64,000 nt of DNA, taken from a virus. The first letter of the stretch is position 1, and each line of letters starts with the position of its first letter. The notes below the pieces were generated by a model. It searched no databases. It saw only the letters and a program-made list of their open reading frames with translations, and was not told where the DNA came from. The stretch spans positions 1-64,000 of the IMG/VR virus record IMGVR_UViG_3300033150_002805; one strand, given 5' to 3'. This document shows, piece by piece, positions 1,223-26,510 of this stretch. A program made the translations under genes and the position numbers.

Positions 1223-2164
1223 TCAATTATTTAATTTTTCTTCAAGCCAGGGTATTCTCACAAATTTTCTCAAATCAAGTTTGCATAAATAAGAGTATTT
1301 AATAAACTCTTTCAACATTATTTTTCTTGAGTTTAAGACTTTCTCTCTGTGTTTTTCAGTAAATCCTTCATTTTTGATATAACCATCCATAACTTTCATC
1401 AAATCTTTCACATAATCTTCTGACCAAAACTTCCCATGGTTCATTATCATTCCTTCTTCGGTTCCACTCAATATCAAATTTCCCTTCCTCATCATTCCAG
1501 TTTCAATTTTCATGGAAAAATGATGAATATTTGTAAGGCGATAGCTTGGCAATACTATCATTTTCTTATCTTTACCCATTTTTATTCCTAGAATATTCAA
1601 AAGCAAGAAATCATCAAAACTATCAATTCTTCTTGCATTATATAAAGCATCAAACCAATCCAAATCTTGAGGACTTAACCAAATCGGAGCAGTGGTATGA
1701 ATCTTGGGATAGAGGTATTCTTTTGAACCCAGGTTCACTCCATAATGTTTTTGGTATTCTTCATTAAAATTTATAATCATGTTATTTGCAGCAGTCACTA
1801 TAAAACCTTTACTTGCTACTCTAAATAGCAGATTAGCCTCATCTGACATGAAATACATGTCAGCATCAAGAATCAAAATTGCTTCATAATTTTTACCTTC
1901 TGAAACTGCCAATGCAAAACGCTCAATCGCTGTATCTTTTACTTGATCATTTCCTTCACTCTTAACTACTTTTATATTAAAATTGAAAGTTTCTTTAATT
2001 TTCTTCAGATAATCTTCGGGCAAACGGAAAGAAAGTAACAGAACATCAGCATCAATTTTCCAATAATCCATTGAATTTAATATTGCATTAATTCCTGGTA
2101 AATAATTGAGAGAACCAGCTACAACTAATAAATTTTTTGATTTCATGATAATTTTGAAAGCCAA
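1223..2164 (-). CDS. GT-A fold glycosyltransferase, GT8-like
   Basis: ILILDADMY DxD motif and C-terminal NHGKFW; paralog of 2932..3798. Confidence 0.7.
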   Translation of the reverse strand: MAFKIIMKSKNLLVVAGSLNYLPGINAILNSMDYWKIDADVLLLSFRLPEDYLKKIKETFNFNIKVVKSEGNDQVKDTAIERFALAVSEGKNYEAILILDADMYFMSDEANLLFRVASKGFIVTAANNMIINFNEEYQKHYGVNLGSKEYLYPKIHTTAPIWLSPQDLDWFDALYNARRIDSFDDFLLLNILGIKMGKDKKMIVLPSYRLTNIHHFSMKIETGMMRKGNLILSGTEEGMIMNHGKFWSEDYVKDLMKVMDGYIKNEGFTEKHREKVLNSRKIMLKEFIKYSYLCKLDLRKFVRIPWLEEKLNN

Positions 2165-2928
2165 TTTTTTATCATACTATCTTTATATTCCAAAATATTG
2201 ATTCGTTGAATACTATGCTTCTCTACAAAATCTTGTTTTACATAATCAGTTAACTTAAAATCTTTTTCTAAAATAAAAGAATGATTTGGCATAACTGAAA
2301 GAGCAGTCATGGCAGGTCCACTTAATACTCCTACAAATGCAAAAGAATGTTGAACTAAACCAATTAAATTTGCCAAATTAGCTTTACAATCTCTAACATC
2401 TCTATTTATAAAATCATATTTTTTATTAACAGGATTTGCAAAACCATGAAGCCAATGGGTTTCAAAAGGAACTAATCCAAATTCCAGAATTTCATTCCAA
2501 ATTTTTTTAGCTATCTCAGGAGAACAATTAATTTGATTTGGTAAAGCAGTAGCTTGAAAATGAACTAAAACTATCGGACTTTTTCTCTTAGGTAATTCAA
2601 TGACTCCACTAACGGGTGGAATACCAAGTTCATTGATACAACAATTTTCTACTTTGGTGAGTCCACTCCCTTCACTCATAGGAAAATTAGGTGAAAATAC
2701 CAAATCATACTTTTCTTCTTCTATTTTATTCACACTAGGGAATATTTTATCTTGATCATTTTCAAGATATAATGAAAATTCAACTTTTGGATAAAGTCGT
2801 TTTAACTCATTAAAAGCGACCATAAAAGTGAGTAAATCTCCCCATCCACAATGATAAAGAATCAATACCTTTTGTCCTGGTTTGAGATATTCAGCTATTT
2901 TTTTCTTTTCAAAATTATCTATTCTCAT
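2143..2928 (-). CDS. GT-B glycosyltransferase, GT9 (heptosyltransferase)-like
   Basis: GWGDLL N-terminal motif and FVGVLSGPAMTA (cf. GT9 xxGxDSGxxHxA). Confidence 0.65.
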   Translation of the reverse strand: MRIDNFEKKKIAEYLKPGQKVLILYHCGWGDLLTFMVAFNELKRLYPKVEFSLYLENDQDKIFPSVNKIEEEKYDLVFSPNFPMSEGSGLTKVENCCINELGIPPVSGVIELPKRKSPIVLVHFQATALPNQINCSPEIAKKIWNEILEFGLVPFETHWLHGFANPVNKKYDFINRDVRDCKANLANLIGLVQHSFAFVGVLSGPAMTALSVMPNHSFILEKDFKLTDYVKQDFVEKHSIQRINILEYKDSMIKNWLSKLS

Positions 2929-2931
2929 AAT

Positions 2932-3798
2932 CTAAGAAGGAAAATCCAAATTAACTTTCCATTGAGTATTAAATTTTTTATATTGCTCAAAAAATAATCT
3001 TATATTCTTTCTCCCAAAATCTATCAAATTGCTTTCTTTAATTTCTTCGGCTTTTTGATAATTTTTTGAAATCCACCATTTTCCATGAAACATATTCATT
3101 CGTTCATTCGCACAATATAGATAATTTCCTTTTTTCTCAATTAAATCATGATACCACCAAGTTTGAATCCATAAAGCATTCGGTAATCTAAACAAATTTC
3201 CCAAAAGTTTCTCCCAGTATAAGGTTCTAAATAAAGTACTCATGTCTCCCAAATCTCCCGAAATGCCATTTTCCCAAATTTTCTCTAAGAATTTTTGATA
3301 CCTTTTTCCATCGATAAAAATTGGCATACAATGAACAGGTGGAGAAGCAGCTCCACGAACTCCTTCAATTCCGTTTTTTTGGATATGTTCTAAACTGTAT
3401 CCAATTGGATTATTTACAACGATAATATATCCAGTATCCTTAGCTATTTTGAAATATTGCATAATATTATTCATGCAAACCATATCTGCATCTACTATTA
3501 ATAAAACATCATACTTCGATGCAATTTCCGTAGCAAATTTCCATCTAAAAAATCTGGCTTTCCAACCTTTAACATTTTTATTAGAAGGAATATCATAATT
3601 TAGTTGATTAATTCTTACATCAATGACTGGAAAATCAAATGCTCTAACTTTCTCGATATAATCTGGTTCAAAATCATTAATTAAATAGTAATCCAGTTCT
3701 TTATTTCCATAATAATCTAAACTATTAAGAAAAGCATTAGCACCGAATTTAAAATCACCTGTTGCTGTCATTATTACTGCATATTTGTTTTTTACCAT
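2932..3798 (-). CDS. GT-A fold glycosyltransferase, GT8-like
   Basis: LLIVDADMV, GDM, FHGKWW motifs. Confidence 0.7.
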   Translation of the reverse strand: MVKNKYAVIMTATGDFKFGANAFLNSLDYYGNKELDYYLINDFEPDYIEKVRAFDFPVIDVRINQLNYDIPSNKNVKGWKARFFRWKFATEIASKYDVLLIVDADMVCMNNIMQYFKIAKDTGYIIVVNNPIGYSLEHIQKNGIEGVRGAASPPVHCMPIFIDGKRYQKFLEKIWENGISGDLGDMSTLFRTLYWEKLLGNLFRLPNALWIQTWWYHDLIEKKGNYLYCANERMNMFHGKWWISKNYQKAEEIKESNLIDFGRKNIRLFFEQYKKFNTQWKVNLDFPS

Positions 3799-4586
3799 AT
3801 TCCAAAATTTCTTAATATTAATTTTTTTTCTTTTTCATTTATAAGTTTATTTCTGAAAGATATTTTCCATCTTGTTGCGATATTTTTTCCATGAATAGTA
3901 ACCAAATATTTTCTTCCCTCTAATTTTATCGCATCAAAGATTCTCGGAACATCATGATGAACTTTTAATCTGTCAGTCATATCAGAAAAATATCTACTGA
4001 AGTTGAAAAAATTTTTAGCTTCAAAAAGAATTGTATAGAATGGAGGACAAGTCGGAGGATCCCAATAACATAGTTCTTGGGTTTCGGTATTTAAAACATA
4101 ACCTTGAGAAAACCATAATGCCCGATTTTTTTTATAATCGTAACTTTGAATCTCCTTCACAGCATCCTTATAAAATAAGTCATCTGAATCTAAAACTGTA
4201 AAATAAACGAACTCTTCATCTTTATAAAAACTCTTAATTACTTTTAGAGATTGCTTAATTCTTTCAACCATTCCTTGATTATCACTGTGTGGTTCCCAAA
4301 TTGGTTGTCCATAAAAAGTAAATGCAAAATTATAATTAAGTTTCTTAAGATACTCATATAAATTCTCAACTGCTAGATTTTTCTCTTCTTCTGGTCTCCA
4401 AGAAATCCAATGTAAAAAATTCCTGTTCGTCTGAGCCAACAAACTTTTCAAAGTATATTCTTTAAATATCTTGATTCTAAATTCTAACCATTCTTGACTT
4501 GGACAACCTTGTCTTCTACCTGTAAAAACTGTTTGAATGATATGTAAAACTGATTTAGTCATCTTAGTGATATAGAACTTTTTCAT
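3792..4586 (-). CDS. GT-A glycosyltransferase (putative rhamnosyl-transferase-like family)
   Basis: WLEFRIKIFKEYTLKSLLAQTNRNF, LDSDD, IHGKN motifs. Confidence 0.65.
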   Translation of the reverse strand: MKKFYITKMTKSVLHIIQTVFTGRRQGCPSQEWLEFRIKIFKEYTLKSLLAQTNRNFLHWISWRPEEEKNLAVENLYEYLKKLNYNFAFTFYGQPIWEPHSDNQGMVERIKQSLKVIKSFYKDEEFVYFTVLDSDDLFYKDAVKEIQSYDYKKNRALWFSQGYVLNTETQELCYWDPPTCPPFYTILFEAKNFFNFSRYFSDMTDRLKVHHDVPRIFDAIKLEGRKYLVTIHGKNIATRWKISFRNKLINEKEKKLILRNFGIW

Positions 4587-5746
4587 TTTAATTGAAAGTA
4601 AGGTTGAATTGCTTTTGGTTCATAGTCCTTAAACCAAGTCCAAGCTTTCTCTGTTAAGTATATCTCTTTTATTTTTCTATATAAATCCAAATTTATTTTC
4701 TCCATTTTTCTTTTTTTGGAAGTTATAGGAGTAATACCATCAAAGGCAAAAACTGGCACTTTAGCTAATTCTATGATTACATTATTGACCTGAATATGTT
4801 CAGGGTGAACATATTCCCCCCAAGGATTATGAGTATAAATACAATCATAAGGCAGAATTTTTTCTTTCAATTTTGCAATTAATTTCTCATAATTTTCAAC
4901 ATGAGCTTCTATGTTTCTGATATCTCGTTTATAACCTGATTCAGTCAAATTAAGACATTCAATTTTCTCTTTTAAGGGATGTCTCTCAAGCACTCTTTTT
5001 CTACCTTCGGAAACTTGAAGATTATCCTTTCTTTTCAGAAAAGCGATTATTATTTTATTAAAATCTTGTGGATTAAACCATAAAATTTCATCATCTGGAT
5101 GTGCAACTACTAAAAGTTTTGATTCTTTTTTTCTACATAAAGCTAAAACCGTACCTCCCAAACCATAATCTTTCCAATTCTCAATATCATTATATTTTAT
5201 AATTCTAACAAAAAAATTATTTTTTTTGAATCTTTCGAAGTAATCTAAACTATATTTGACCCAACGATCACTCCAATTCTTTTCCATCAATCTAGTTTTC
5301 TCAGAAATAATTGGAACTAAAAATAAAATTCCATTGGGCTTCAAAATTCTAAAAAGTTCTTTTATCGCCAATTCATTTTTTTCTCTAATTTGATCTATTA
5401 TACAACTACAAATTATAATGTCAAAACTTTCATTCTTAAAAGAAGTTTTTCTTAAATCCATTTTTAAATCAGCTTTAGTAAAAGCATTAGTTTCTTGTAG
5501 TAAAAAATCAATGGAAATATATTCAAAATCATTTTGAAATCTTTCTTTCAAACATTTCATTGGTGAACAATGAAGCAATTTTCCTTTTTTAAATTCTTTA
5601 AATATTTCAGAATAAATCAACCAAATCAACCTATGTCTATTGCTTGATAAACATTTTGGGCATTTCCAATCATCGTCTGGATACCACTCTCCCTTTTTCT
5701 TAAATAGATTGAAATTTCCTTCAAAATGACAAATTGGACAATACAT
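4583..5746 (-). CDS. SAM-dependent methyltransferase fused to PIG-L/LmbE-like deacetylase
   Basis: CPIC..CPKC Zn motif, FDIIICS..ELFRILKPNG; then VVAHPDDE and THNPWGEYVHPEH. Confidence 0.75.
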   Translation of the reverse strand: MYCPICHFEGNFNLFKKKGEWYPDDDWKCPKCLSSNRHRLIWLIYSEIFKEFKKGKLLHCSPMKCLKERFQNDFEYISIDFLLQETNAFTKADLKMDLRKTSFKNESFDIIICSCIIDQIREKNELAIKELFRILKPNGILFLVPIISEKTRLMEKNWSDRWVKYSLDYFERFKKNNFFVRIIKYNDIENWKDYGLGGTVLALCRKKESKLLVVAHPDDEILWFNPQDFNKIIIAFLKRKDNLQVSEGRKRVLERHPLKEKIECLNLTESGYKRDIRNIEAHVENYEKLIAKLKEKILPYDCIYTHNPWGEYVHPEHIQVNNVIIELAKVPVFAFDGITPITSKKRKMEKINLDLYRKIKEIYLTEKAWTWFKDYEPKAIQPYFQLK

Positions 5747-7498
5747 TTAAACAGAAGGGATTTCTCCCTCAAATAAGTTTTTAGCATGGGTAAAATCTTC
5801 CAAAGTATTGATATTGATATATTTATATTTTTTTTCTTTCTTTTTCAATTCTGGAGGTACCATTTCCCAAAACTCATTCATTAATTGAACTCCCCTCAAG
5901 TACATAGCAACTGCTTTTGATTCGATCCCATCTCCTTTAATATGAAATGGTTGCAGACAAGAAAAATGGATGGCTTCAATAAATTTTACTCGAAGATACC
6001 AATTGATATCAACTTTGAAAAATTGTTCAAGTATAACAGGAAAACGTTTATTAATTGTTTGAAATTCCTCTTTCGCTAAACAATCATTTACAAAGAATTC
6101 AGCCTTTATAACTCTATTCTTTTCTTTCCATCTTAATTTGAAAATGTATTCATAGATGAAATCATAAAGCCCATTGAAATCATGAAAGAGTTTAGCAATA
6201 TCATACATAGGGTCTCCTATTGAGAAACCTTTGGGATCAACCAACATAAAATCAGGAGGTGATGATTTCAAATCGACCAAAATATTATCAAAGTGTGGAT
6301 CTCCATGAATCATGCTCAGATAAGGAGGTTGAAGATTAGCCAACAATTTGGTTTTATCTTTTATTCTTTCAAGAATAGGGAAAATATTCTCATATTCTTT
6401 TCCATTTATTATAATTTTTTTGGCTTCGAACAATTTTTTAAAGATCGGAGCTTTTTTCATACTCAATTTCTTTCTTTCATCTACTCTAAAAAAATGGACT
6501 GAATGTATATAAGAAATGGGTGTTAACTCTCGTTTAAGTGTATAAACTTCTTCTACTAAAAATTTAACAACTCGGGAAAGAATATCTATAGCATCAGTCG
6601 CAGAAAATCGTCCACTCAAAATCAATTTTTTCAATGATAACTGATCGTAATGAGGCATAGTATACCAAACTGGTTTTGATTTTATATCATACTCTAAAAT
6701 TTTAGGAAAATGCAATTTTACTCTTTCGGGCAAACTACGAAGATAACTAATCTCATTAATTAGACGTTTTGGATCATCCCAACTCTCTTTCTTGATTACT
6801 TCATCATTTTTGGTTATTGAAATTCTTGAAAAAGAACCGCCATCCATCATTAAATCTCCTGTTTTCTTTCTAATCATTTTTCTTTCTACATTCAAAACAT
6901 ATAGAGTCCTATTTCTAGAAAATTCATTAAGGAGCACATGCATTTCTGTATTCCTAAAAGTTTCTCTATTAGCCAAATTTTTATAATATTCAAAATCATC
7001 TGCTGAAATTTTGGTAATTCCACTATGAATCTGCCAAGGAAAGGTAGGCGAAATATAACGACCTATTTCCATCACGATATTATCTTCGACCTCAATTCGG
7101 CTACCAGCTTCAAGTTTGGATAAAGCTGTATAACTGACTATCAAAGATTTTTTGGAACAATTCAAAACCTCTTTTATCACACCCTCTTCAAATATAATAT
7201 CTGCATCTAAAATCAAAACTGGACCAGATTCAATTTTTTCAAGAGCTAATCTAAGCGAATAGGGAGTTTGAGTTGTAGCATAATCATAGTTAACGATTAC
7301 ATTATCAAACATACTTTCTATCTTTTCATGGAAATATCCAGCAACAATAATAATATCTTTCAAACCCAAATTTTTCAATTTTTGAATTGAATGTTCTAAT
7401 ATTGTGGAATTTCCAAGTGGTATTAAGCACTTAGGTATCTTTTTTGTAAGAGAACCCATTCGAGTTCCCATGCCTGCGGCTAAAATTATGACTTTCAT
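5747..7498 (-). CDS. LicC-like nucleotidyltransferase with inserted choline/aminoglycoside-kinase-like domain
   Basis: MKVIILAAGMGTRMGSLTKKIPKCL; IHGDPHFDNIL, LVDPKG, YDIAKL; NTase C-terminal ININTLEDFTHAK resumes after the kinase. Confidence 0.75.
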   Translation of the reverse strand: MKVIILAAGMGTRMGSLTKKIPKCLIPLGNSTILEHSIQKLKNLGLKDIIIVAGYFHEKIESMFDNVIVNYDYATTQTPYSLRLALEKIESGPVLILDADIIFEEGVIKEVLNCSKKSLIVSYTALSKLEAGSRIEVEDNIVMEIGRYISPTFPWQIHSGITKISADDFEYYKNLANRETFRNTEMHVLLNEFSRNRTLYVLNVERKMIRKKTGDLMMDGGSFSRISITKNDEVIKKESWDDPKRLINEISYLRSLPERVKLHFPKILEYDIKSKPVWYTMPHYDQLSLKKLILSGRFSATDAIDILSRVVKFLVEEVYTLKRELTPISYIHSVHFFRVDERKKLSMKKAPIFKKLFEAKKIIINGKEYENIFPILERIKDKTKLLANLQPPYLSMIHGDPHFDNILVDLKSSPPDFMLVDPKGFSIGDPMYDIAKLFHDFNGLYDFIYEYIFKLRWKEKNRVIKAEFFVNDCLAKEEFQTINKRFPVILEQFFKVDINWYLRVKFIEAIHFSCLQPFHIKGDGIESKAVAMYLRGVQLMNEFWEMVPPELKKKEKKYKYININTLEDFTHAKNLFEGEIPSV

Positions 7499-8348
7499 GA
7501 TTATCCATTTGTTTTTTCATAATTTTAAGTCCTTGTTCTATTTCATTTATATGAATATTTTTTAAAGAATTTTTCATTTTTGGATTTAAAGGTCTGTTCT
7601 TCAATTCTTGTTTTATCGGGATAATTTTAGTTTTTGGTAATTCAAATATTTTTATTATTTGTTTCGCCCAATTGAATTTGGTTATCGGAATTTGACTGCT
7701 CAAATGAAAACATCCATTTCTCTTTTCTTTAATAAGAAAATGAATAACTTTGGCAACATCATCAATTAAGACTGGATATCGTAGATGAACATTATTGAGT
7801 TCTAAAATTTCACCCTTCCTTGACTTTTTTATTACTTCTGTCACAAAAGTTATTTTGTCATCTTTATTATTAAACCCATAAAGTTTAGGAAGTCTGATTA
7901 TCAACCAGTCCTTGAGTTTTTTTACCTCACTTTCGCCAATTGCTTTAGTTTTACCATAGAAATTCAAAGGTTGAACTGAATCAGTTTCATCATATCCAGT
8001 AGATTTACTTCCTTCAAATACATAATTAGAAGAAATAAAAATCAATTTTTTTTCATATTTGGCACAAACTTTGACTATATTTTCTGTTCCAACAACATTA
8101 ACATTCCAAGCAAGTATTTTATCTTTTTCACATAAATCTGGATCTGCAATTCCAGCAACATGAATCAGAATATCTGGTTGAAAACCTTTGATTAGCTTTT
8201 CAATCGAATCTTTCTTAAGAATGTCAAGATACTGAAATTCTGGTATTTTTTTAATAAATTGGGTTCCAATCACATCATAATAGTCAGAAAGAACTTGATA
8301 TATTTTTAAACCCAAAAAACTATCTGCACCGATAACTAAAATTTTCAT
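7431..8348 (-). CDS. rmlD: dTDP-4-dehydrorhamnose reductase-like SDR
   Basis: MKILVIGADSFLG, ISSNYVFEG, PLNFYGKTKAIGE; start trimmed to ATG at 8348. Confidence 0.75.
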   Translation of the reverse strand: MKILVIGADSFLGLKIYQVLSDYYDVIGTQFIKKIPEFQYLDILKKDSIEKLIKGFQPDILIHVAGIADPDLCEKDKILAWNVNVVGTENIVKVCAKYEKKLIFISSNYVFEGSKSTGYDETDSVQPLNFYGKTKAIGESEVKKLKDWLIIRLPKLYGFNNKDDKITFVTEVIKKSRKGEILELNNVHLRYPVLIDDVAKVIHFLIKEKRNGCFHLSSQIPITKFNWAKQIIKIFELPKTKIIPIKQELKNRPLNPKMKNSLKNIHINEIEQGLKIMKKQMDNHESHNFSRRHGNSNGFSYKKDT

Positions 8349-8349
8349 A

Positions 8350-9477
8350 TTAAGAAAGAGGATTCCAATCTCCCCTGATACTTGGCATTTCCCACCACTT
8401 GAAATCTTTCTGATGAACTGGAATTCTCCAGTTCTTTCCATACCGAGATTTCAAATAATCCTCTATATCAGAAGGAAGATTGAATTTCTCTCCTTTAAAT
8501 TCAAACTCTAAAAATTTTTCATAATGTCTTTTAGAAACTACCGAAGCAAAGAAACCTTTCTTACCTGTCTTATAGGTAGGATCTTGTCCAAAATTAAAAG
8601 CTTCATCTCCAAACTTATCCAAAACACAAACATCTATATGGTTGTCATTTCGACCAATTTTACAACCTTGAAGTTTATTTGGAAGAAAATCTCGCCAAAC
8701 TTTTAAGATTTTGAAACCTTTTTTTTCAGCTTCTGGCCATATCTTGGGAATTTCTTCAGCATATTCCCTAGAAACTCCAACATCTATATCGTTTTCATCT
8801 CCTGGACAAAAATCATTATCTCTATATACACCCAAAGCCGTCCCATCTATCAAAACAAAAGGAATATTTAATTTTTCCATTATCCTCTTAAAGTCAAGCA
8901 AATTCTGAAAAGCTTGTTCTTTTTTCTTAATATTTTCGTTTTCATAAATGATAACTTTTTGTTTTCTTATGTGAATAATTTGGGGACTACCTGGAAAATC
9001 ATTATCTTCTAAAAGACAAAGATGTTTTTCATATTCATTCCCCATTACAGCTCTTCCCTGATCAAAATAATTAGGTGTGGATATTATAACCCAATGAGAT
9101 TTTTTTCTTGCTATTTCAAGAACTCTTAAGGCTTCTTCTTTTTCTAAATGTTCCAATACGTCTCCAAAGATAATCAAATCATAAGTTTCCATCTTTGAAA
9201 GCAATTTTTTGACATCTCCTATAAAGATTTTGTTATAAATCATTCTTTGCAACTCCGTTATGTTATCTTCACAGATTTCAATTCCATCAATTATGATTTC
9301 ATTTCTCCAGTTCTTATATTCTTGTCGACTTAAATCTTCTTTCCAAATAAATCCATACTCTCTTGATAAAAAACCCCAAAGTCCAAAACCTACTCCAACA
9401 TCTAAAATTCTCTTCGGACTAAGTTTCGAAAGCCACTTACAAATAATTGGAATTATATCTGGTTTAGCTACTGGCAT
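8350..9477 (-). CDS. SAM methyltransferase fused to LicD-family phosphotransferase
   Basis: ILDVGVGFG, DVLEHL; GTALGVYRDNDF..DENDIDVG and YLKSRYGKNWRIP. Confidence 0.8.
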   Translation of the reverse strand: MPVAKPDIIPIICKWLSKLSPKRILDVGVGFGLWGFLSREYGFIWKEDLSRQEYKNWRNEIIIDGIEICEDNITELQRMIYNKIFIGDVKKLLSKMETYDLIIFGDVLEHLEKEEALRVLEIARKKSHWVIISTPNYFDQGRAVMGNEYEKHLCLLEDNDFPGSPQIIHIRKQKVIIYENENIKKKEQAFQNLLDFKRIMEKLNIPFVLIDGTALGVYRDNDFCPGDENDIDVGVSREYAEEIPKIWPEAEKKGFKILKVWRDFLPNKLQGCKIGRNDNHIDVCVLDKFGDEAFNFGQDPTYKTGKKGFFASVVSKRHYEKFLEFEFKGEKFNLPSDIEDYLKSRYGKNWRIPVHQKDFKWWEMPSIRGDWNPLS

Positions 9478-10156: not shown

Positions 10157-10724
10157 ACACTTTGTTTAAAATTTCATCTTTAACCACCCAATAATGAACT
10201 GGTTTTCTGCTTACCCCTGCACTTCTTCTTACCTTCCAATTTCCATACCAATTATTCAATAATTCTTCTACATGATTTGGAATAAGAAATTCAAGACCCT
10301 TAAAATGAATCGGGACTAGATATTCAAAAAATTTGATTTCGTTGATATGCACCCTATATTTATTATCTCTTTCTTGTACCACATCGATTCTTTTGTCTTT
10401 GATTTTAAAATACAATTCGAGATCAATTTCCTCATTTCTGTAAAATCTATAAAGAAAATAACCCTTTCTTTTTCCTTTTGAACAAATAATTGGAACTTCT
10501 TTTTCTACTCTAAAACCTTTTATTTTTGCTTTCTCAATTATCAAGGGAATCTTATCGGAATTTTCAGCAAACATTCCAATATCTATATCATTATCTCCAA
10601 AAATAAAATTTCTTTCACGAATCGCACCCAACAAAGTTCCTCCAATCAGAAAAAAGGGAACTTTTAGATTATCATAAATCTCCTTAACTTCTTTTAAATC
10701 TTCAAAAGCTTTTTCGAAATTCAT
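10143..10724 (-). CDS. LicD-family phosphotransferase
   Basis: GGTLLGAIRERNFIFGDNDIDIG, LLNNWYGNWK. Confidence 0.8.
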   Translation of the reverse strand: MNFEKAFEDLKEVKEIYDNLKVPFFLIGGTLLGAIRERNFIFGDNDIDIGMFAENSDKIPLIIEKAKIKGFRVEKEVPIICSKGKRKGYFLYRFYRNEEIDLELYFKIKDKRIDVVQERDNKYRVHINEIKFFEYLVPIHFKGLEFLIPNHVEELLNNWYGNWKVRRSAGVSRKPVHYWVVKDEILNKVCEND

Positions 10725-10735
10725 GATTAATTCTT

Positions 10736-11833
10736 TTAAACTTCTAACTTTTCAATTTTATCAAATTCTTTCTTGAATTGTTCAAACTTTTCAATTTCTT
10801 CATCGGTGGGTAATTTACATCTTCCACCCTTATAATACTTTTCGACTGCATCAACCACCATATAGGGTTCTATCAAACTAAAACATCTCGGAACTTTTTC
10901 TCCTTGAAATTCAACTAAATTTTTGCATTTTCCTTTATTACCTCCTAACCAACAACCATCCCATTCACAACATTTAAGACATCCATTTGTATAAAGATAT
11001 TGAATATGAGGATAGATTTGCCATCTAACTCCTTCCTTGCCTCCTGCAACAACTACTGCTGGCTGATTAAAAGCAGCTGACATTACAAATTGAAAAGAAA
11101 TAGGCCCAATTGTTCCCTCTGCCCAATAACATAATCGAATCAATTGCCTAGTATTTGTTTTACCAACTAAATCAAGAACTCCTTTCAATTTTGGATGAAC
11201 ATGACTTGCATGACCAATCTGAACTAATTTCACCCTTCCTTGAAATCTCTCATTAAATAAATCAACAACTTCCTGCCACCTATGATATTGTTTTAATTCA
11301 TTATCTTGTTTTCTTCCTGCATTTAAAAGCCAGAAAGGTCCATCCCAACCGAATTCGCAATGTACTTGATTATACCAACTCTTTTCTTGATCCGAAATCC
11401 ATAATTCTGGTCTTATTCCAGTTTTTTTGATTGGAATACCGAGTTTCTTTTCTAAATCATAACGAAATGCATCTGTAAAATGTAAACCACGCCATCCACT
11501 CTCATTTATCAAGTCATAAGTGATATTAAAAATTTCTACTTCTGGATCATCTTCTTTTAAAGGAGTTAAGCGAGGATTATTTTGCCAAATTTCGGGTGCA
11601 GGACTTCTGATATCAATCTTGTAATTCTTATAACTTTCTGCTAAATCTCCTACAGCTCTGGTAAAAGTTAATATATCACCTGGACTCTGTCCTTGACGAA
11701 GGATTACTTTTCTTTTAGCATTAACAATTTCGGGATGTTTCTCAGCCCACTCATCCCAGTAGATATTTATATTCGAATACTCATAATGCTCAGGGACAAT
11801 TGCCTTGTTTTCGTCTTTATTCATAGTTTTCAA
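10736..11833 (-). CDS. GT9 ADP-heptose-dependent heptosyltransferase-like protein with Cys-rich C-terminus
   Basis: SPGDIL, IWQNNP, LVQIG, LDLVGKTNTRQLIRL, C-terminal CLKCCEWDGCW..KC..RCFSLIEPYMV; true ATG probably 11824. Confidence 0.7.
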   Translation of the reverse strand: MKTMNKDENKAIVPEHYEYSNINIYWDEWAEKHPEIVNAKRKVILRQGQSPGDILTFTRAVGDLAESYKNYKIDIRSPAPEIWQNNPRLTPLKEDDPEVEIFNITYDLINESGWRGLHFTDAFRYDLEKKLGIPIKKTGIRPELWISDQEKSWYNQVHCEFGWDGPFWLLNAGRKQDNELKQYHRWQEVVDLFNERFQGRVKLVQIGHASHVHPKLKGVLDLVGKTNTRQLIRLCYWAEGTIGPISFQFVMSAAFNQPAVVVAGGKEGVRWQIYPHIQYLYTNGCLKCCEWDGCWLGGNKGKCKNLVEFQGEKVPRCFSLIEPYMVVDAVEKYYKGGRCKLPTDEEIEKFEQFKKEFDKIEKLEV

Positions 11834-12623
11834 AATAATCTTTTATACCAGATTCGACTGTATATTCTGGTTTGAAACCCCAAGAAATATCTGCTTTAGT
11901 AAAAATTTGATATTTTCCTAAATAAGGATTGCTAATGAACTTAGGTTCAATTCTTACCCCCAAAGTTTTAATCACTATTTTCAAAACATCTCTAAAATCG
12001 GTTGCTATTCCTGTTCCGACATCATAAATTCCACTTCTCAGTTTTTTTGCTATTAGTAAGGATTTGATAACATCTTTAACATAGATGAAATCTCGTTTAA
12101 ACTCACCTTTGAAAATAACAGGTCGCTCTCCTCGTTTAATTTGTTCTCGCCATTGGGTAATCATACTTGCCATCTTTCCTTTTTTCTTTTCTCTAGGACC
12201 ATAAACATTCATAAATCTCAATCCAACAATCGGAATCTTATTCCAATATCGTTTAGCCAATTTATCATTCGTTAATTTGGTCTCACCATAGGCATTCAAT
12301 GGAAAATTATTATTGCCATAAACTGAACCAGAGGAAGCATAAACTAATCTTACTCTGTTATCAACGCAATATCTTAAGACATTCAAAAAACTTACGATAT
12401 TATTTCTATACATCTCTATGTCATCAGAAAAAGTGGTATCTGTATTCGCTGCTAAATGAAATATAATATTGGGTTTCTTATTTGGAAAAAATTTAACAGA
12501 AATATCATCATTATATTCTTCAATAAGGTTTTTGCTATCTTCTTGTAATTTTTGAACTAAATTTGAAGCAATAAAACCTTGACTTCCAGTAACACAATTC
12601 TTAATTTTATTTTTCTTGGCCAT
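11817..12623 (-). CDS. hldD: ADP-L-glycero-D-manno-heptose 6-epimerase-like
   Basis: VTGSQGFIASNL, YASSGSVYG, PLNAYGETK, LRFMNVYGPRE.KKGKMASM, RDFIYVKDV, YQIFTKAD. Confidence 0.8.
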   Translation of the reverse strand: MAKKNKIKNCVTGSQGFIASNLVQKLQEDSKNLIEEYNDDISVKFFPNKKPNIIFHLAANTDTTFSDDIEMYRNNIVSFLNVLRYCVDNRVRLVYASSGSVYGNNNFPLNAYGETKLTNDKLAKRYWNKIPIVGLRFMNVYGPREKKKGKMASMITQWREQIKRGERPVIFKGEFKRDFIYVKDVIKSLLIAKKLRSGIYDVGTGIATDFRDVLKIVIKTLGVRIEPKFISNPYLGKYQIFTKADISWGFKPEYTVESGIKDYFENYE

Positions 12624-12647
12624 AAAAAAGAAAAAAAGAGTTCAGAG

Positions 12648-13310
12648 TCATTTTGATTTTTGAACCTTTATTTCACCTACATTAACTATATGGCAATTTG
12701 GACAGAGCTTTTCTAATTTGGTAACTATTCTTGAATCGTTTTCATAAAATTCTTCAATTTTTAGTTTCTTAATCATCTCTGCCTTCCATCTTATTTCTTT
12801 CTCAAGAGTTTTTTCATTAATTGTTATAGCATTAAAATAAACTGGATGTTTCTCTCTTATTTTTCTATTTACCCTTTTTATTTCTTCAAAACTTCTACCC
12901 GTGATTATTGGAGCATCCTTTTCTGGTTTAATACCCGCTGTGATTACTCCATCATAATCATAGGCCCTTCTTAACTGAACTTTTCCCGATTGTTCTTTTC
13001 TATAAGAATCTGAATCTTCATGATGAGAAGAGAACTCTACAATTTGAGCATCTGTTAATCCAGTAAATCTGTGTAATACTCTGGGTTTGATATGAACCGA
13101 ATCTTTTGGTTTCATTATCCATTTTTTTCTTTCTACTTCCATTAGAACTTTACCACGAATAAGATAGAACGTTTCATCTTTTTTCTTATGATAATGAAGA
13201 CTACAACGAAAACCCCTCTTCAATTTTAAGAGCTTTCCACAATAATCTTTCTGATTTTGAATCCAAATTTCTTCTCCCCAAATTTTTGAAACTTTTTTAA
13301 TTTTATTCAT
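12648..13310 (-). CDS. Cupin (sugar isomerase-like) fused to HAD-like domain
   Basis: KIWGEEIW, SLHYHKKKDETF, HRF cupin motifs; AYDYDGVI (DxDG), ITGRS, FYEND HAD motifs. Confidence 0.7.
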   Translation of the reverse strand: MNKIKKVSKIWGEEIWIQNQKDYCGKLLKLKRGFRCSLHYHKKKDETFYLIRGKVLMEVERKKWIMKPKDSVHIKPRVLHRFTGLTDAQIVEFSSHHEDSDSYRKEQSGKVQLRRAYDYDGVITAGIKPEKDAPIITGRSFEEIKRVNRKIREKHPVYFNAITINEKTLEKEIRWKAEMIKKLKIEEFYENDSRIVTKLEKLCPNCHIVNVGEIKVQKSK

Positions 13311-14082
13311 GAATTAATTCTTTTAAAGAAACAACAGAAGTTCCGAATCGAGAAACAACAATTCCAGCAGCCTTATTAGCAAGTTTCATCATACTCTCAG
13401 GATTAGTAATTCCAACAGACAAACAATAAATTAAGACTGCCATTACTGTATCACCAGCACCCGTAACATCAATAACTTCCTTAGATATAACAGGAACATT
13501 CATTCTAAATTTTCCGTTTTCATAGTAATTTATTCCATTCTTACCTTGGGTAATAAAAGCTTGAGGAAAATTCACATTATAAGCTTCCTCGTATTCCTTC
13601 CGATTAATTTTCAAAATCTGTGAACCTTTGAAAACTGATAAATCTTTCTTTTTAGTATCAACTATAGTTGCTTTTCCACCATTAACAATTCCCTTATTAT
13701 AATCAACAAAAGCTATCAAATCAAATTCAGAAGAGGGATATTCCAATCTTTCTAAATCTTGAGTTCGATAAACTTGGGGTTCATCGACTCTTAAAAGTTG
13801 TTGATTCTGAGCAACAAACCTTGTCTTAACCAAGGAAACACAATTCTTAGGAGTTCTAACTTCGAAGGAAAAATTTTTCAAAAAATTTTTATCTACTATT
13901 GTAAATACTACAGGCTGAATGCCCAAAGAGGATAAATTTTTTGCCACGTTCAAAGCACCTCCCAAACGAATTTCTGTCTTTTTGATATCCAGAACTGGAA
14001 CTGGAGCTTCAGGAGAAATTCTATCAACTTCTCCAAAACAATATTTATCCAAAAAACTATCACCAACTATTGCAACTTTCAT
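13303..14082 (-). CDS. hldA: D-glycero-D-manno-heptose-7-phosphate kinase (HldE/RfaE domain I)
   Basis: GDSFLDKY..G.VDRISPEAPVPV, LGGALNVA, QQLLRVD, DYNKG, DVTGAGDT. Confidence 0.85.
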   Translation of the reverse strand: MKVAIVGDSFLDKYCFGEVDRISPEAPVPVLDIKKTEIRLGGALNVAKNLSSLGIQPVVFTIVDKNFLKNFSFEVRTPKNCVSLVKTRFVAQNQQLLRVDEPQVYRTQDLERLEYPSSEFDLIAFVDYNKGIVNGGKATIVDTKKKDLSVFKGSQILKINRKEYEEAYNVNFPQAFITQGKNGINYYENGKFRMNVPVISKEVIDVTGAGDTVMAVLIYCLSVGITNPESMMKLANKAAGIVVSRFGTSVVSLKELIHE

Positions 14083-15071
14083 GACAAATATCCTTTATTT
14101 TTAAACAAATCCTCTTTTTCAAAAGAACGACCCTTTATTTTTTTTAACAACCGAGTTGTTGAATAGTTTGCTAATCTTGGAATAATCACTACCTTTCCAC
14201 CATAATCTCTTACAAAATCATGTCCTATTACTGTTCGTTTAGTGTAATCACCTCCTTTTACTAATACATCGGGTTTGATTCGTTTTATCAGACGTAAAGG
14301 ATTACTTTCATTAAAAATCTCGACTTTATCAACATATTTTAAGGACTCAAGAATTTTCTTTCGTTCTTCTTGATTATTTATCGGTTTTCGTTTTATTCTT
14401 GTTGCTGATGTATCAGAATTAAGACCAACTATCAAAATATCTCCTAATTTTTTTGCTTCTTTCAACAAATAGATATGTCCCAAGGTTAATAAATCATAAA
14501 CTCCATTTGTGAATACCACTAATTCTTTTTTATATACTGCACTATAAATATCTTTTCTTATTCCGCATTCAACTTCTGGATAACCAGATTTAATAAGTTT
14601 GAAACCTCTAGCTTCAAAGAATAAATTCAAACTTTCCTTTGTAAAATAATGAAGATGTTCTCCAGTATCAAACTTAAAATGTTTCCAACCTCTTAATTTT
14701 TTTCCATCTGGAAGGATAGGTAAAGAAATGTAAACATAACGAGTCTTCTTAAATATCTTATCCAAAACTCTAAAATCTGGAATATGTTCCAAAACATCGC
14801 AAAAAAAGATTAGGTCATAAGATGTATGCCTAATCCCAGTATATTTTATTGGAAATTCACCAATATCAAAAGAATCAACTAAAACCCCTTTAGGAGAGAA
14901 TTTAGTCAAAAAGTTGGCTCCTGCTCCATAATCCAAAACGATCTTTGGTTTCAACTCTTTAACAAAATTCCAGCGAACTTTATTTAGTTTTTTCGCTGTT
15001 TTCTCGTAATCTTTTGAAATTGTTTTCCAATATTCTTTATTATATCGAAACAAATTTTTCTCTTTTTCCAT
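14079..15071 (-). CDS. hldC: SAM methyltransferase fused to heptose-1-phosphate nucleotidyltransferase (HldE/RfaE domain II)
   Basis: VLDYGAG, DVLEHI, EHLHYF; VFTNGVYDLLTLGHIYLLKEAKKLGDILIVGLNSD, IKPDVLVKGGDY, YSTTRL; start trimmed to ATG at 15071. Confidence 0.8.
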   Translation of the reverse strand: MEKEKNLFRYNKEYWKTISKDYEKTAKKLNKVRWNFVKELKPKIVLDYGAGANFLTKFSPKGVLVDSFDIGEFPIKYTGIRHTSYDLIFFCDVLEHIPDFRVLDKIFKKTRYVYISLPILPDGKKLRGWKHFKFDTGEHLHYFTKESLNLFFEARGFKLIKSGYPEVECGIRKDIYSAVYKKELVVFTNGVYDLLTLGHIYLLKEAKKLGDILIVGLNSDTSATRIKRKPINNQEERKKILESLKYVDKVEIFNESNPLRLIKRIKPDVLVKGGDYTKRTVIGHDFVRDYGGKVVIIPRLANYSTTRLLKKIKGRSFEKEDLFKNKGYLS

Positions 15072-15246
15072 GGTGGGAATCTCTTTTAAGGTTAGAGAAT
15101 CTCGGAAAGGTCTAATTCTCCAACCCACTTTCTTCTTTTTTTAATTCCTTGAGACCTTTCCATTTCATTGAGTTCAACGAATCTAACAAAGATAGATTCT
15201 CCCCCAATGAAAGACTCAAGGATGCTTAATCTATTGACTTTGAGAA

Positions 15247-16036
15247 TTACCAATCAGAACTTCCAGCGTATGCATACTGCCACATTCCAAAACCAGCATT
15301 TCCTCGCCAACTCACACCGAAATATATTTTCTTTCTCATGAAATCTTCCCAGGTATTTCCAGCATGAGTTTCAAATGTGATATCTTTTCTTAATTGTAGG
15401 ATAATTGGTTTTACTATTCCATTGGTATCCATCACACACCAGAAGTTAGTTGGCACACGAGAAGTAACATATAAATCTAACAATCCTTTCATCACATTCG
15501 TTGCAAGTTTTGTACCTGATACCTCAGTTGGGAAATATTGACTATTCAAGATTTCTCTCGCCAAGAACATGTTATTAGGATGAACTACTAACAAGTTTGG
15601 CCTGATATCCATTTCATTTCCTTTATCATCTACATATTGCATCATTGTCTGAATAGCAGTCTGCAAAGCACTAAAACTGAAAGCTGTACCTGTTGCTATA
15701 TTGGATTGAATTCCTGAACTACCAGATGAATGAGATGCTGAGAAGAAGGGCTGACCATCATAACAAGTGATATCCTTTCCCTCAAATAATCCAGTACCAG
15801 TAGATAAATTACCTTGACCCAAAAGGGTATAAACCAATCTACCCCAGAATCTTTTTGCCTTATCAGCTAAATCTCGAACTCTAATATTAATCTGCCCATA
15901 AAGCTCATCTTCCAATGCATCTTTATCAACTGCTATAGTGCTTTCCCAACTGTAGTTCTTGATGCTGAAATTGTGTTCGAGTAAAGCTTCAGGAACTCGT
16001 TCATCCTTCCATTCTTTTAGTTCAGGGACTCCACCT
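15247..16036 (-). CDS. Major capsid protein, Mu gpT-like, exon 2
   Basis: GGVPELKEWKDER...NYSWESTIAVDKDALEDE.YG, CYDGQPFFSASH, PNLLVV, GFGMWQYAY; spliced gene is 311 aa. Confidence 0.9.
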
Positions 16037-16999
16037 CTATTAACCTTTTATATTTCTATAAAAGCTAGACCATCTCATCCACTAAAAGTGGTCTGACGTA
16101 TGGCCGTTGAGGATCTTCAATCTCTGATAATCTAAGATATCTAAATCAGAATACGGTCTTGAATTTGATAAGGATAAACGCCTTTCACAAAAATCTTTTA
16201 TGATAGCGATTTTCCCATTTAAATCAATAGTTTCAAATCTTTTACAAAATTTAAAACATCTTTTAAGACCTAATATACTTATAACATATTTTGGTTTATT
16301 CCGATTTTTATCAAATCGCTGGATATGATGAGGAATTTTTTTATTTTCAAAGAATCTTTGAATTGAATTTTTCCCAGTTTGAGAAGTAGTAAAGAATCTA
16401 ATTCTAGGAATATACTTTGTTCGTTCACCCTTATAATTTCTTTTGATTATAGTAGCACTACCATCTCCTTCCCAAAATCCCATCAACCAATATTTATCAA
16501 TTTTCATTGTTGAAATCTTCTCTTTTTCTAAACTTGATTGAAAAGATTCTTTATAATTTTGGCGAAGCTTTGGTTCTATTTTGAGACTCTCTTTTATAAT
16601 CTCAGATTGATATTTTTTGATAACTAATTTGGGATTAATCAATTTAAGCCATCTGGAAACCTGTGGATCTCCTTTGATAAAAATAGAAGTTTGAATTCTA
16701 TACCAAGATTTTCGTTTTCTAATCGTAAGATGAAATTTAATCTCATTCAACTTAAGAAAATTGATATAACAATCAATAATCTTGGAATTAGTATTCACAA
16801 ATCCTATTATCGGATTCCAATATTTTCTTTTCTGTTTCTCAAAAGTAAACCAACCTTCGGCATCAAATAATCCAGCGATATAAGATTGAATTTCCTGCTG
16901 ATTGCCCGTTAAAATATCTTTCATATATTACCTAATTAGTTATGAAAGCTTTAGGGTTTTCCAGCATTTAGTCAGATTTTTCATGGTCAGGTGGTTTCT
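16037..16999 (-). mobile_element. Group I intron (963 nt) in the major capsid gene
   Basis: Exon ends in U, intron ends in G; IGS CCACCU-GACCAUG pairs with 5' exon CAUGGUU (U.G at the splice site) and 3' exon AGGUGG (P10); core-like AAUGCUGGAAA, UCAACGGCCAUACG, AUGGUC; splicing restores YAWLGGVPELKEW in frame. Confidence 0.92.
16082..16924 (-). CDS. Intron-encoded double-motif LAGLIDADG homing endonuclease
   Basis: YIAGLFDAEGWF and WLMGFWEGDGSA. Confidence 0.9.
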   Translation of the reverse strand: MKDILTGNQQEIQSYIAGLFDAEGWFTFEKQKRKYWNPIIGFVNTNSKIIDCYINFLKLNEIKFHLTIRKRKSWYRIQTSIFIKGDPQVSRWLKLINPKLVIKKYQSEIIKESLKIEPKLRQNYKESFQSSLEKEKISTMKIDKYWLMGFWEGDGSATIIKRNYKGERTKYIPRIRFFTTSQTGKNSIQRFFENKKIPHHIQRFDKNRNKPKYVISILGLKRCFKFCKRFETIDLNGKIAIIKDFCERRLSLSNSRPYSDLDILDYQRLKILNGHTSDHF

Positions 17000-17145
17000 A
17001 ACCATGCATATGGTTCAACGGATTTCCCTGATCTAATTAAAGTAGCAACTCTTTCCCATTCAGGAACGGTCATTTTCAGTTGTTTCATAAACTCCTTTCT
17101 CATTCCCGCAAGCAATAGATTAGGTATATCTGTTTTTGTTAACAT
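17000..17145 (-). CDS. Major capsid protein exon 1
   Basis: MLTKTDIPNLLLAGMRKEFMKQLKMTVPEWERVATLIRSGKSVEPYAW(L); 146 nt joins exon 2 in frame. Confidence 0.88.
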
Positions 17146-17151
17146 AGTTTA

Positions 17152-17676
17152 TTATCCACTCGAACAACTTGAACTGCAACTTGAGCTTGAACTCTCACTA
17201 GAACTAGACGAGCAAGAACTTGAAGAACTCCAAGATTCCTCTGTCCAAGTAGTTGAAGTAGCACAACAAATATCAACTTTTACTAAAGTAGAACTGATAT
17301 AACCAACTACTACACCTACAAGTACTCCATTAGTAACTTGCTGTCTAAGTCCAACGGTATTATCATCAACTACAAATACCTGATGACCAACCCAAGATTG
17401 AGTAGCTCCAGAACATGGAAGCTGAAATACTCCGTTTCGGAATACTCTTACTCCTCTGGCTCCATCTGAGTCGGTATCTACGTCATCAGATAAAGAACGC
17501 TCAACAGCAATCCCAGCAAAAGTATAGCCAGCACTATCCGTTGCAGCATACAAATAACCATTGCTATTATTAGTAGTCACAATCGCTCCTTTATAAATAT
17601 CTTCACCATTCTTAATCGGATAGTAGATTATATGTCCATCTTGACGTTTGTCTTCAAAGTCATCACTGAGTGCCAT
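17152..17676 (-). CDS. Capsid decoration/cement protein with Ser/Cys-rich C-terminal tail
   Basis: IYKGAIV..GY, FAGIAVE, V.V.RNGVF, VGHQVFVVDDNTV; lies between scaffold and MCP; ends SSSSSCSSSSSESSSSSCSSSCSSG. Confidence 0.75.
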   Translation of the reverse strand: MALSDDFEDKRQDGHIIYYPIKNGEDIYKGAIVTTNNSNGYLYAATDSAGYTFAGIAVERSLSDDVDTDSDGARGVRVFRNGVFQLPCSGATQSWVGHQVFVVDDNTVGLRQQVTNGVLVGVVVGYISSTLVKVDICCATSTTWTEESWSSSSSCSSSSSESSSSSCSSSCSSG

Positions 17677-20224: not shown

Positions 20225-20237
20225 AAGGGTCAAGAGT

Positions 20238-26467: not shown

Positions 26468-26510
26468 GGTTATTGAACCTAGGTTCAAAATCCATAGGTG
26501 CTTAGCAAGG

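Follow-up and report, generated by a model that had tools for sequence, protein, structure and literature searches.

The IMG/VR virus record IMGVR_UViG_3300033150_002805 is 76,846 bp long and, because it carries 114-bp direct terminal repeats, can be read as a circle. The window analysed here, its bases 1–64000, contains a sugar cluster of 15 open reading frames (ORFs) between the capsid gene and a LamG gene (15128 down to 1223, minus strand). We conclude that this cluster probably encodes a cytoplasmic protein O-glycosylation system that acts on proteins of the phage's own particle. The evidence comes from the families to which the enzymes belong, from the fold of a GT9-like glycosyltransferase (GT) of GT-B type, here termed GT9L, from long serine tracts in the structural proteins, and from the co-occurrence of such tracts with the module around GT9L in other phages. 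A wider proposal, which we hold to be plausible without calling it probable, is that this is a widespread, phage-specific form of O-glycosylation. Tags of the type (Ser~8-Phe)n would be modified by a GT9-like heptosyltransferase with methyltransferase, GT9 and GT8 partners to give a glycan fur on virions, elaborated in this phage by autonomous ADP-heptose synthesis through a fusion of cupin and haloacid dehalogenase (HAD) domains and by decoration of the LicC/LicA/LicD type. An earlier note on this DNA had likewise read the cluster as building a glycan coat on the virion, an interpretation that is partly supported by the analysis below.

Serine tracts occur in five proteins of the structural module, all of which can be placed in this closed genome:

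17152–17679, minus strand: head decoration (cement) protein (phrog_1731, E 6.4e-20), a candidate acceptor with a C-terminal Ser/Cys tail at residues 149–175
Window 2–943 (N-terminal 314 residues) and genome 74658–76732 (the rest, across the circular junction), minus strand: LamG protein of 1005 residues (Laminin_G_3, E 4e-14, circularised ORF), a candidate acceptor with a poly-Ser tract of ~137 residues
Genome 71647–74697, after the LamG gene: protein of 1016 residues with a tract at residues 423–975
Genome 68095–69168: tail tube protein (Phage_tube_2, E 4.9e-13) with a C-terminal tract at residues 329–357
58886–64168 (window part 58886–64000), minus strand: distal tail protein of 1760 residues, a candidate acceptor with poly-Ser stalks at residues 366–538 and 720–799

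Together these tracts comprise 983 residues (85% Ser, 9.5% Phe and 1.6% Cys), with some 840 serines over one copy each of the five proteins. The commonest Ser run is 8 residues, giving the pattern (Ser~8-Phe)n, and the tracts occupy exposed C-termini or stand between lectin-like modules. They draw on all six Ser codons, with proportions similar to the remaining genome's; it is therefore selection on the protein, rather than simple slippage, that maintains them. The Ser tracts that the earlier note had seen on virion proteins are thus real, and are carried by more proteins than it stated. Its description of the gene beyond the cluster as DUF2341/LamG holds for the LamG part, whereas DUF2341 gave no match.

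The link that had been drawn between the cluster and poly-Ser virion proteins is supported by comparison with other phages. A search of IMG/VR with the GT9L alignment gave 28 loci, 22 of them non-redundant. Under a strict criterion (a minimum of 25 residues, 80% or more of them Ser), tracts are present in 13 of the 22, and in none of 78 loci (1.17 Mb) that have a related capsid protein without GT9L (Fisher p = 7e-11, indicative only). Reading whole contigs adds G001, G004 and G007, raising the count to 16 of 22. G001, a syntenic relative of 77 kb, has Ser tails on its decoration, tube and distal tail proteins; in G004 two giant poly-Ser proteins follow the cluster, and G007 has six ORFs with poly-Ser tracts on the gene strand. 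The Ser tail of the decoration protein is found in G001 and L088 and is absent from G002, G003 and L087. Giant Ser-rich proteins of up to 3090 residues often directly adjoin the module. In L095, L099, L100 and L104, ORFs of 2339–3090 residues, several of them cut by the end of the locus or contig, lie upstream of the methyltransferase–GT9L pair; they consist of modules of ~150 residues parted by Ser/Thr tracts, with up to ~1470 tract residues per protein.

The module has a conserved core whose order is a methyltransferase of ~175 residues, GT9L, a small GT9-like protein, a GT8 and a GT8-like enzyme, seen in the 28 IMG/VR loci and in two contigs binned to metagenome-assembled genomes (MAGs). 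A scan of genome contigs found three loci, all on MAG contigs that are phage-like in appearance and give no hint of the host, and in the two MAG-binned contigs the module is followed by LamG poly-Ser proteins. The core is also present in lineages whose capsid proteins gave no match in the BLAST comparison. Among 80 loci with a related capsid protein, only the two closest (62–63% identity) bear the cluster, in both cases directly after the capsid gene. The recurrence of core and poly-Ser proteins together across lineages speaks for poly-Ser as the acceptor, without being proof of glycosylation or of heptose.

The tracts could instead be flexible spacers or low-complexity expansions that carry no glycan, with the cluster serving another target such as phage DNA or a small molecule. 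Ser-rich linkers without glycosylation exist in many proteins, which lends this explanation some weight. Phage GT-B enzymes that glycosylate DNA are also known, as work cited in PMC12619734. We nevertheless judge it very improbable, given the co-occurrence statistics, the siting of the tracts at exposed C-termini and between lectin-like modules, and their mixed Ser codon usage. DNA hypermodification in particular was set aside: a Pfam scan of the ten largest non-structural proteins found no supporting gene of the hydroxymethylase or thymidylate-synthase type and showed only an N6/N4 DNA methylase.

The enzyme at the centre of the core is the following:

10736–11833, minus strand: GT9L, a GT9-like GT-B glycosyltransferase of 365 residues, identified by its fold match to GT9 structures

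GT9L is the most conserved gene of the module, with hundreds of homologues at 60–76% identity across phages; for comparison, the capsid proteins of the closest relatives are 62–64% identical. It does not itself match Pfam PF01075 at E ≤ 1, and searches of PDB sequences with the protein and with profile A1 returned nothing meaningful. Among 34 close homologues, 10 match PF01075 weakly (best E 8.6e-4), and two distant members found with profile A1 lie above the PF01075 cut-off, P0155 at 77 bits and P0178 at 64.5 bits. An AlphaFold2 model built with alignment A1 (34 homologues) has a pLDDT of 89, compared with 32 for a single-sequence run. Structural comparison gave VIA Z-scores of 23.5 for 3tov (rmsd 3.0 over 275 aligned residues), 20.8 for TibC, 20.6 for WaaF and 18.8 for WaaC, and at most 11.7 for other GT-B folds; the Foldseek match has an E-value of 8e-11, with WaaF and WaaC among the best structural matches. 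From this model we conclude that the fold of GT9L is that of GT9. Among 1.84 billion representatives, a profile search found 882 clusters with homology to GT9L at E ≤ 1e-30. Many of the distant family members are fused to methyltransferase or further GT domains; a Ser tract is absent from all 150 family representatives screened, so there are no enzyme–substrate fusions among them.

A precedent for such an activity is TibC/AAH of the bacterial autotransporter heptosyltransferase (BAHT) family (PDB 4RAP/4RB4), which transfers heptose from ADP-heptose on to many serines of one protein (PMC4358343). TibC has an N-terminal flattened β-barrel domain, residues 1–97, that is required for activity, and an iron finger formed by Cys339, Cys342, Cys358 and Cys370 (PMC4358343). 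BAHT enzymes assemble into dodecameric rings and act on the passenger domain of an autotransporter whose gene adjoins their own. GT9L resembles these enzymes in having a GT9-type GT-B fold and in being cytoplasmic and free of transmembrane (TM) segments. It also has four cysteines in a 30-residue insertion in the C-lobe, three of them invariant (C294, C303 and C317) and the fourth, C288, conserved to at least 90%. These are reminiscent of the TibC iron finger in their position, a comparison made without superposition of residues. Further GT9 enzymes may also bear Cys motifs at that site in the C-lobe. In other respects it differs. GT9L has no sequence-level similarity to the BAHT enzymes, and its model has ~40 residues before the first Rossmann strand (E42–46) and no N-terminal β-barrel; pLDDT is below 50 over residues 1–21, after which come short helices at 26–32 and 34–37. 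Its neighbours are phage structural and glycan genes with no autotransporter among them, and a conserved methyltransferase and three more GTs go with it. As candidate acceptor it has a pure (S~8 F)n tract on phage proteins in place of the β-helix of an autotransporter, and GT9L is structurally no closer to TibC than to the lipopolysaccharide (LPS) enzymes (3tov and WaaF). Membership of the BAHT family was ruled out because GT9L lacks both the N-terminal β-barrel and an autotransporter partner. GT9L is a candidate initiating Ser-O-heptosyltransferase.

The resemblance to WaaF and WaaC raises a second possibility, that the cluster remodels the LPS core or lipooligosaccharide (LOS) of the host, or another host glycoconjugate, and that the poly-Ser tracts are unrelated linkers. 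Heptose, hexose and a phosphocholine-like group would then be added to lipid A-core at the cytoplasmic face, blocking superinfection or keeping progeny from adsorbing to debris. GT9 (WaaC/F/Q), GT8 (WaaO/R/J type), HldA/C/D and LicC/LicD are canonical LPS-core/LOS enzymes, and the same families make up this cluster. The earlier note had argued against conversion of the host surface from the lack of a flippase or TM segment. It is correct that no TM segment is found in any of the 15 cluster proteins, the one hydrophobic window lying in the RmlD ORF upstream of its probable true start. The argument is weaker than claimed, however, and does not exclude remodelling of host LPS, because the LPS core's own GT9 and GT8 enzymes, like the Lic enzymes for phosphocholine, are located in the cytoplasm without TM segments and have no need of them. 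Other evidence makes host remodelling unlikely in our judgement. The module is coupled to poly-Ser proteins across lineages, with none in the 78 control loci; it lies inside the late structural operon between capsid and neck genes; no integrase or lysogeny module was seen among the proteins scanned; and GT9L is too diverged from LPS heptosyltransferases to match Pfam GT9.

Upstream of GT9L in the direction of transcription, and directly abutting it, is a block of genes for a heptose donor:

14079–15128, minus strand: methyltransferase (N-terminal; Methyltransf_23, E 1.5e-12) fused to an HldC-like heptose-1-phosphate adenylyltransferase (C-terminal; CTP_transf_like, E 1e-19; TIGR02199, E 2.4e-48)
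13303–14082, minus strand: HldA-like heptose-7-phosphate kinase, rfaE domain I (TIGR02198, E 7.1e-59; PfkB, E 1.1e-18)
12648–13310, minus strand: cupin of the type II phosphomannose isomerase (PMI)-like kind fused to a minimal HAD-type phosphatase (Cupin_2, MannoseP_isomer)
11817–12623, minus strand: HldD-like ADP-heptose 6-epimerase (TIGR02197, E 3.9e-62)

The three Hld families are far ahead of any unrelated NCBIfam family, the best of which reach 1e-11 to 1e-19. The scores are 163.6 bits for the HldC-like domain (rfaE domain II) against TIGR02199 (cut-off 181.5), 199.5 bits for the HldA-like kinase against TIGR02198 (cut-off 345) and 210 bits for the HldD-like epimerase against TIGR02197 (cut-off 274.6). 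Small genes that adjoin GT9L in 20 loci match only residues 29–201 of the methyltransferase–HldC fusion. The methyltransferase half of that fusion is the counterpart of the core methyltransferase, which in other phages stands immediately upstream of GT9L.

The gene at 12648–13310 had been overlooked in the earlier note. Its first 95 residues are the PMI-like cupin, and in its C-terminal half a D118-x-D120-G-V motif, T137, a Lys and an ED motif are invariant in 5 orthologues, by their pattern the signature of a minimal HAD phosphatase. The Atlas lead for this protein is modest (score 0.86), a viral cluster with MannoseP_isomer and Hydrolase_3. Neither an SIS-type GmhA (PF13580) nor a HAD-type GmhB (PF13242, Hydrolase_like) gave a Pfam match in the 76.8-kb genome. 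With neither an SIS isomerase nor a HAD protein that Pfam can detect in the genome, the motifs make the cupin–HAD fusion a candidate non-orthologous replacement for GmhA and GmhB.

The Hld block belongs to this phage's clade as an addition to the core, and its adjacency to GT9L there is the evidence by which ADP-heptose becomes a candidate donor for that enzyme. The tracts might be glycosylated with a first sugar other than heptose, or by an initiator other than GT9L; a GT8-like enzyme or the GT2 could start the glycan and GT9L extend it, with heptose in an inner position or a side chain. Most GT9L loci elsewhere have no Hld genes within 10 kb, and G001 lacks HldD and the cupin–HAD gene. The best PDB relative of the GT8-like family at 1223–2164 is moreover the GT8 structure 5gvv, which we take to be pneumococcal GlyE, an enzyme active on a serine-rich repeat protein. 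Against these points, GT9L is the most conserved enzyme and, as follows from how the search was built, the sole one found in every locus, it adjoins the Hld block directly in this clade, and the only known GT9-fold protein-Ser transferases, TibC and AAH, use ADP-heptose (PMC4358343). We consider a different first sugar or initiator rather unlikely, and retain GT9L as the candidate for initiation with heptose.

The remaining partners of GT9L in the conserved core are these:

2932–3798, minus strand: GT8-like GT-A enzyme (PF01501, E 3.3e-4, under the cut-off)
2143–2928, minus strand: small GT9-like protein (hhalign, Atlas cluster)
1223–2164, minus strand: second GT8-like GT-A enzyme, with a DxD motif (profile A2 against 5gvv)

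A homologue of the first is present in 16 GT9L loci. The other two, like GT9L, are ORFs without a Pfam match, and each of the three was studied individually; this work agrees with the earlier count of two GT9-like and two GT8-like enzymes. The family of the small GT9-like protein (A3) aligns with the GT9L alignment (A1) in hhalign at a probability of 38% and an E-value of 3.3e-4, collinear over 186 columns, and 32% of the members of a nearby Atlas cluster (score 0.96) have PF01075. By this sequence comparison, the protein appears to be a shorter, distant paralogue of GT9L. Profile A2 of the 1223–2164 family matches 5gvv with an E-value of 1.7e-4, and D100-A-D102 is invariant in the family. In several lineages this gene stands directly upstream of LamG/poly-Ser genes.

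Between GT9L and the first GT8 lies a set of genes that elaborate the module in this lineage:

10143–10724, minus strand: LicD-family phosphotransferase (PF04991, E 5.2e-12, 46.8 bits; NF045866, E 4.4e-12)
9464–10156, minus strand: GT2 (GT-A) glycosyltransferase (PF00535, E 1.8e-9)
8350–9477, minus strand: methyltransferase fused to a LicD phosphotransferase (LicD, E 2.6e-8; Methyltransf_23, E 3e-5; NF045866, E 1.9e-16)
7431–8441, minus strand: RmlD-like 4-keto-sugar reductase (RmlD_sub_bind, E 1.8e-49; TIGR01214, E 1e-46)
5747–7498, minus strand: LicC-like nucleotidyltransferase fused to an APH-fold kinase, in the order LicC then LicA (NTP_transf_3, E 1.8e-15; APH, E 2.1e-6)
4583–5746, minus strand: methyltransferase fused to a PIG-L-type de-N-acetylase (Methyltransf_11, E 2.3e-8; PIG-L, E 9.3e-7)
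3792–4586, minus strand: rhamnosyltransferase-like GT-A (Rhamno_transf, PF11316, E 1.6e-7)

The earlier note's list of Hld-like enzymes, GTs, RmlD, LicD, methyltransferases and a deacetylase is upheld by Pfam and NCBIfam; its count of 13 genes is replaced by the 15 ORFs between the capsid and LamG genes (1223–15128). With 34.7 and 46.8 bits, both LicD domains exceed the Pfam cut-off of 22.6. The true start of the RmlD ORF is probably Met32, as the Pfam match begins at residue 32. In the bifunctional protein at 5747–7498, the best PDB relative of the nucleotidyltransferase domain is LicC (1jyk, E 6.5e-14), and the kinase domain matches APH (E 2e-6) and EcKL, not Choline_kinase. No LicB permease is present in the cluster, since there is no TM protein in it. 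From LicD to the rhamnosyltransferase-like gene, the cluster holds an insertion without counterpart in the remaining GT9L loci, the exceptions being single LicD homologues in L087 and L089 and a rhamnosyltransferase-like homologue in L120. It is the largest tailoring set among the GT9L loci compared.

For O-glycosylation of the phage's own proteins, we infer the acceptor, the identities of the sugars and the order of the steps as follows. The donor, ADP-L-glycero-β-D-manno-heptose, would be made from sedoheptulose-7-phosphate without help from the host by the cupin isomerase, the HldA-like kinase, the HAD phosphatase, the HldC-like adenylyltransferase and the HldD-like epimerase. GT9L would place the first sugar, probably heptose, on serines of the (Ser~8-Phe)n tracts, the acceptors being the decoration protein, the tail tube, the two large LamG/fibre-like proteins and the distal tail protein. 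Extension would fall to the two GT8-like enzymes and their small GT9-like partner, with capping or modification of the glycan by the conserved methyltransferase. In this lineage, the GT2, the rhamnosyltransferase-like GT, RmlD and the methyltransferase/PIG-L protein may add further sugars, while the LicC–LicA-like activating enzyme and the two LicD transferases may add a phospho-alcohol substituent of the phosphocholine type. The outcome would be a mucin-like glycan coat on head, tail and fibres. We infer that the tracts are glycosylated, that heptose comes first and that the coat would be methylated and phospho-substituted, as the earlier note had put it.

Several points weigh against this mechanism. 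The glycan itself is predicted here from genes, and the GT9, GT8, Hld and Lic families cannot separate a protein acceptor from lipid A-core. All three Hld enzymes score under the NCBIfam equivalog cut-offs, and are therefore named '-like' here. Hld genes are missing within 10 kb of GT9L in most phages that have it, so heptose may not be the donor in all of them. The Fisher p-value overstates independence, because many of the GT9L loci are related and the controls are mostly smaller, unrelated phages. Relatives with the cluster and without Ser-rich proteins, which according to the earlier note would speak against its reading, were looked for, and one exception was found in the 22 non-redundant loci. 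This is G006 (a 90,403-bp record, locus L106), which has a GT9L homologue and no tract rich in Ser or Thr, both of which were screened; it is classed as a provirus, its GT9L homologue is a fusion protein of 528 residues with one in-frame TAG, and the other core genes are absent. Finally, the close relatives G002 and G003 have the Hld block and GT9L, yet their decoration proteins lack the Ser tail; both contigs are fragments that end at the LamG gene, before the tail genes.

The phage is siphovirus-like, with a GC content of ~30%, and every gene of window 1–27050 is on the minus strand. The sugar cluster sits within the string of late structural genes, in the same direction and tightly packed with them, and most of its 15 ORFs overlap or abut. 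In the direction of transcription, the string begins as follows and reaches the sugar cluster through the decoration and capsid genes:

24998–26488, minus strand: portal, first of the string
20238–24938, minus strand: head polyprotein of 1566 residues, between portal and protease
17699–20233, minus strand: protease/scaffold, 5' of the decoration gene
15247–17148, minus strand: major capsid gene of Mu gpT type (PF10124, E 8.5e-31)

After the cluster come the LamG gene, the gene for the 1016-residue protein, a 318-residue protein, Neck1, the tail tube, the tape measure, Dit and, last in this order, the distal tail protein. The structural region gave no match to GenBank phages by megablast. The 1566-residue protein, whose versions in relatives are 72–81% identical, contains a metallo-β-lactamase-fold hydrolase and an ATP-dependent DNA ligase domain (PF01068, E 3e-16). 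The protease/scaffold has a (GYPY)n repeat at residues ~366–403 as well as long acidic stretches. A group I-like intron of ~960 nucleotides splits the capsid gene and holds a LAGLIDADG ORF at 16082–16924; L003 and L004, in which the gene is uninterrupted, place the exon junction at YAWL|GGVPEL, and the intron scores 24.8 bits against Rfam Intron_gpI (E 8e-4), under the gathering score. A scan for promoters and terminators was overall not above chance; the best terminator-like hairpin of the region, at 1015–1032 on the minus strand, has a 7-bp stem followed by TTTTTT and falls in the 279 nucleotides that separate the LamG gene from the last gene of the cluster.

The phage holds several mobile elements. 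A plus-strand gene at 55048–57192 encodes a protein of 714 residues with LAGLIDADG_3 at residues 481–532 and a C-terminal PG_binding_1 domain; this is perhaps a lysin-like gene with an inserted intein or homing endonuclease. A TnpB/IS605 OrfB-type gene (OrfB_IS605 and Cas12f1-like TNB) lies at 44668–45780 on the plus strand, and ~0.5 kb downstream of it is a third LAGLIDADG gene, also on the plus strand, at 46306–47130.

Among known systems, the glycosylation of particle proteins by phages has a precedent in the mycobacteriophages Che8, Corndog and Myrna, which are reported to have glycans on the C-termini of capsid and tail-tube subunits (Freeman et al. 2023, as cited in PMC12363180 and PMC12619734). 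There the essential enzymes are one or two glycosyltransferases (PMC12363180), and the citing papers do not mention a sugar-nucleotide pathway. The likeness is between phage GTs that act on their own particle, in those descriptions, and the C-terminal Ser tails on decoration and tube proteins here, which are known from the genes. Compared by description, the present phage differs: it has a cluster of 15 genes that includes an ADP-heptose pathway of its own and a GT9-like enzyme, and its tracts run to hundreds of serines.

In the proteins with serine-rich repeats (SRRPs) of Gram-positive adhesins, long Ser-rich tracts are glycosylated in the cytoplasm by the products of adjacent genes (GtfA/B and GT8 enzymes such as GlyE). 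Long Ser-rich tracts and adjacent GT8 genes are shared with this phage, where the nearest PDB relative of the 1223–2164 protein is 5gvv. A GT4 (Glycos_transf_1) initiator of the GtfA/B type had no match among the 15 cluster proteins, and in contrast to the SRRP systems there is neither such an initiator nor an accessory Sec system. In place of SASx repeats, the tracts, on parts of the phage particle, consist of almost pure Ser with Phe at regular intervals. The LPS inner-core/LOS pathways (HldE/HldD, WaaC/WaaF, GT8 Waa enzymes and Lic1) draw on the same enzyme families, LicC being nearest to the nucleotidyltransferase domain. They differ in that the phage has no SIS-type GmhA, with a cupin–HAD fusion in its place, and no LicB permease, and in that its genes form part of a phage structural operon and are coupled to poly-Ser proteins.

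No published description of phage poly-Ser tags with GT9-like enzymes was found in the literature searched. This genome adds a near-complete, autonomous heptose block with a cupin–HAD fusion, a large tailoring set and a closed sequence with five tagged proteins. The cupin–HAD fusion, if it acts as proposed, would be a non-orthologous route into ADP-heptose, a compound known, too, to act as an innate-immune agonist. Should the tracts be glycosylated, the tailed phages of uncultured hosts would have dense glycan coats of their own making, compared with a few sugars on capsid and tube C-termini in the known cases. Adsorption, aggregation and grazing would be affected by such a coat, as would recognition by immune or defence systems, and the pairing of a poly-Ser tag with a soluble GT9-like enzyme would be a compact, portable tagging scheme of interest to glyco-engineers.

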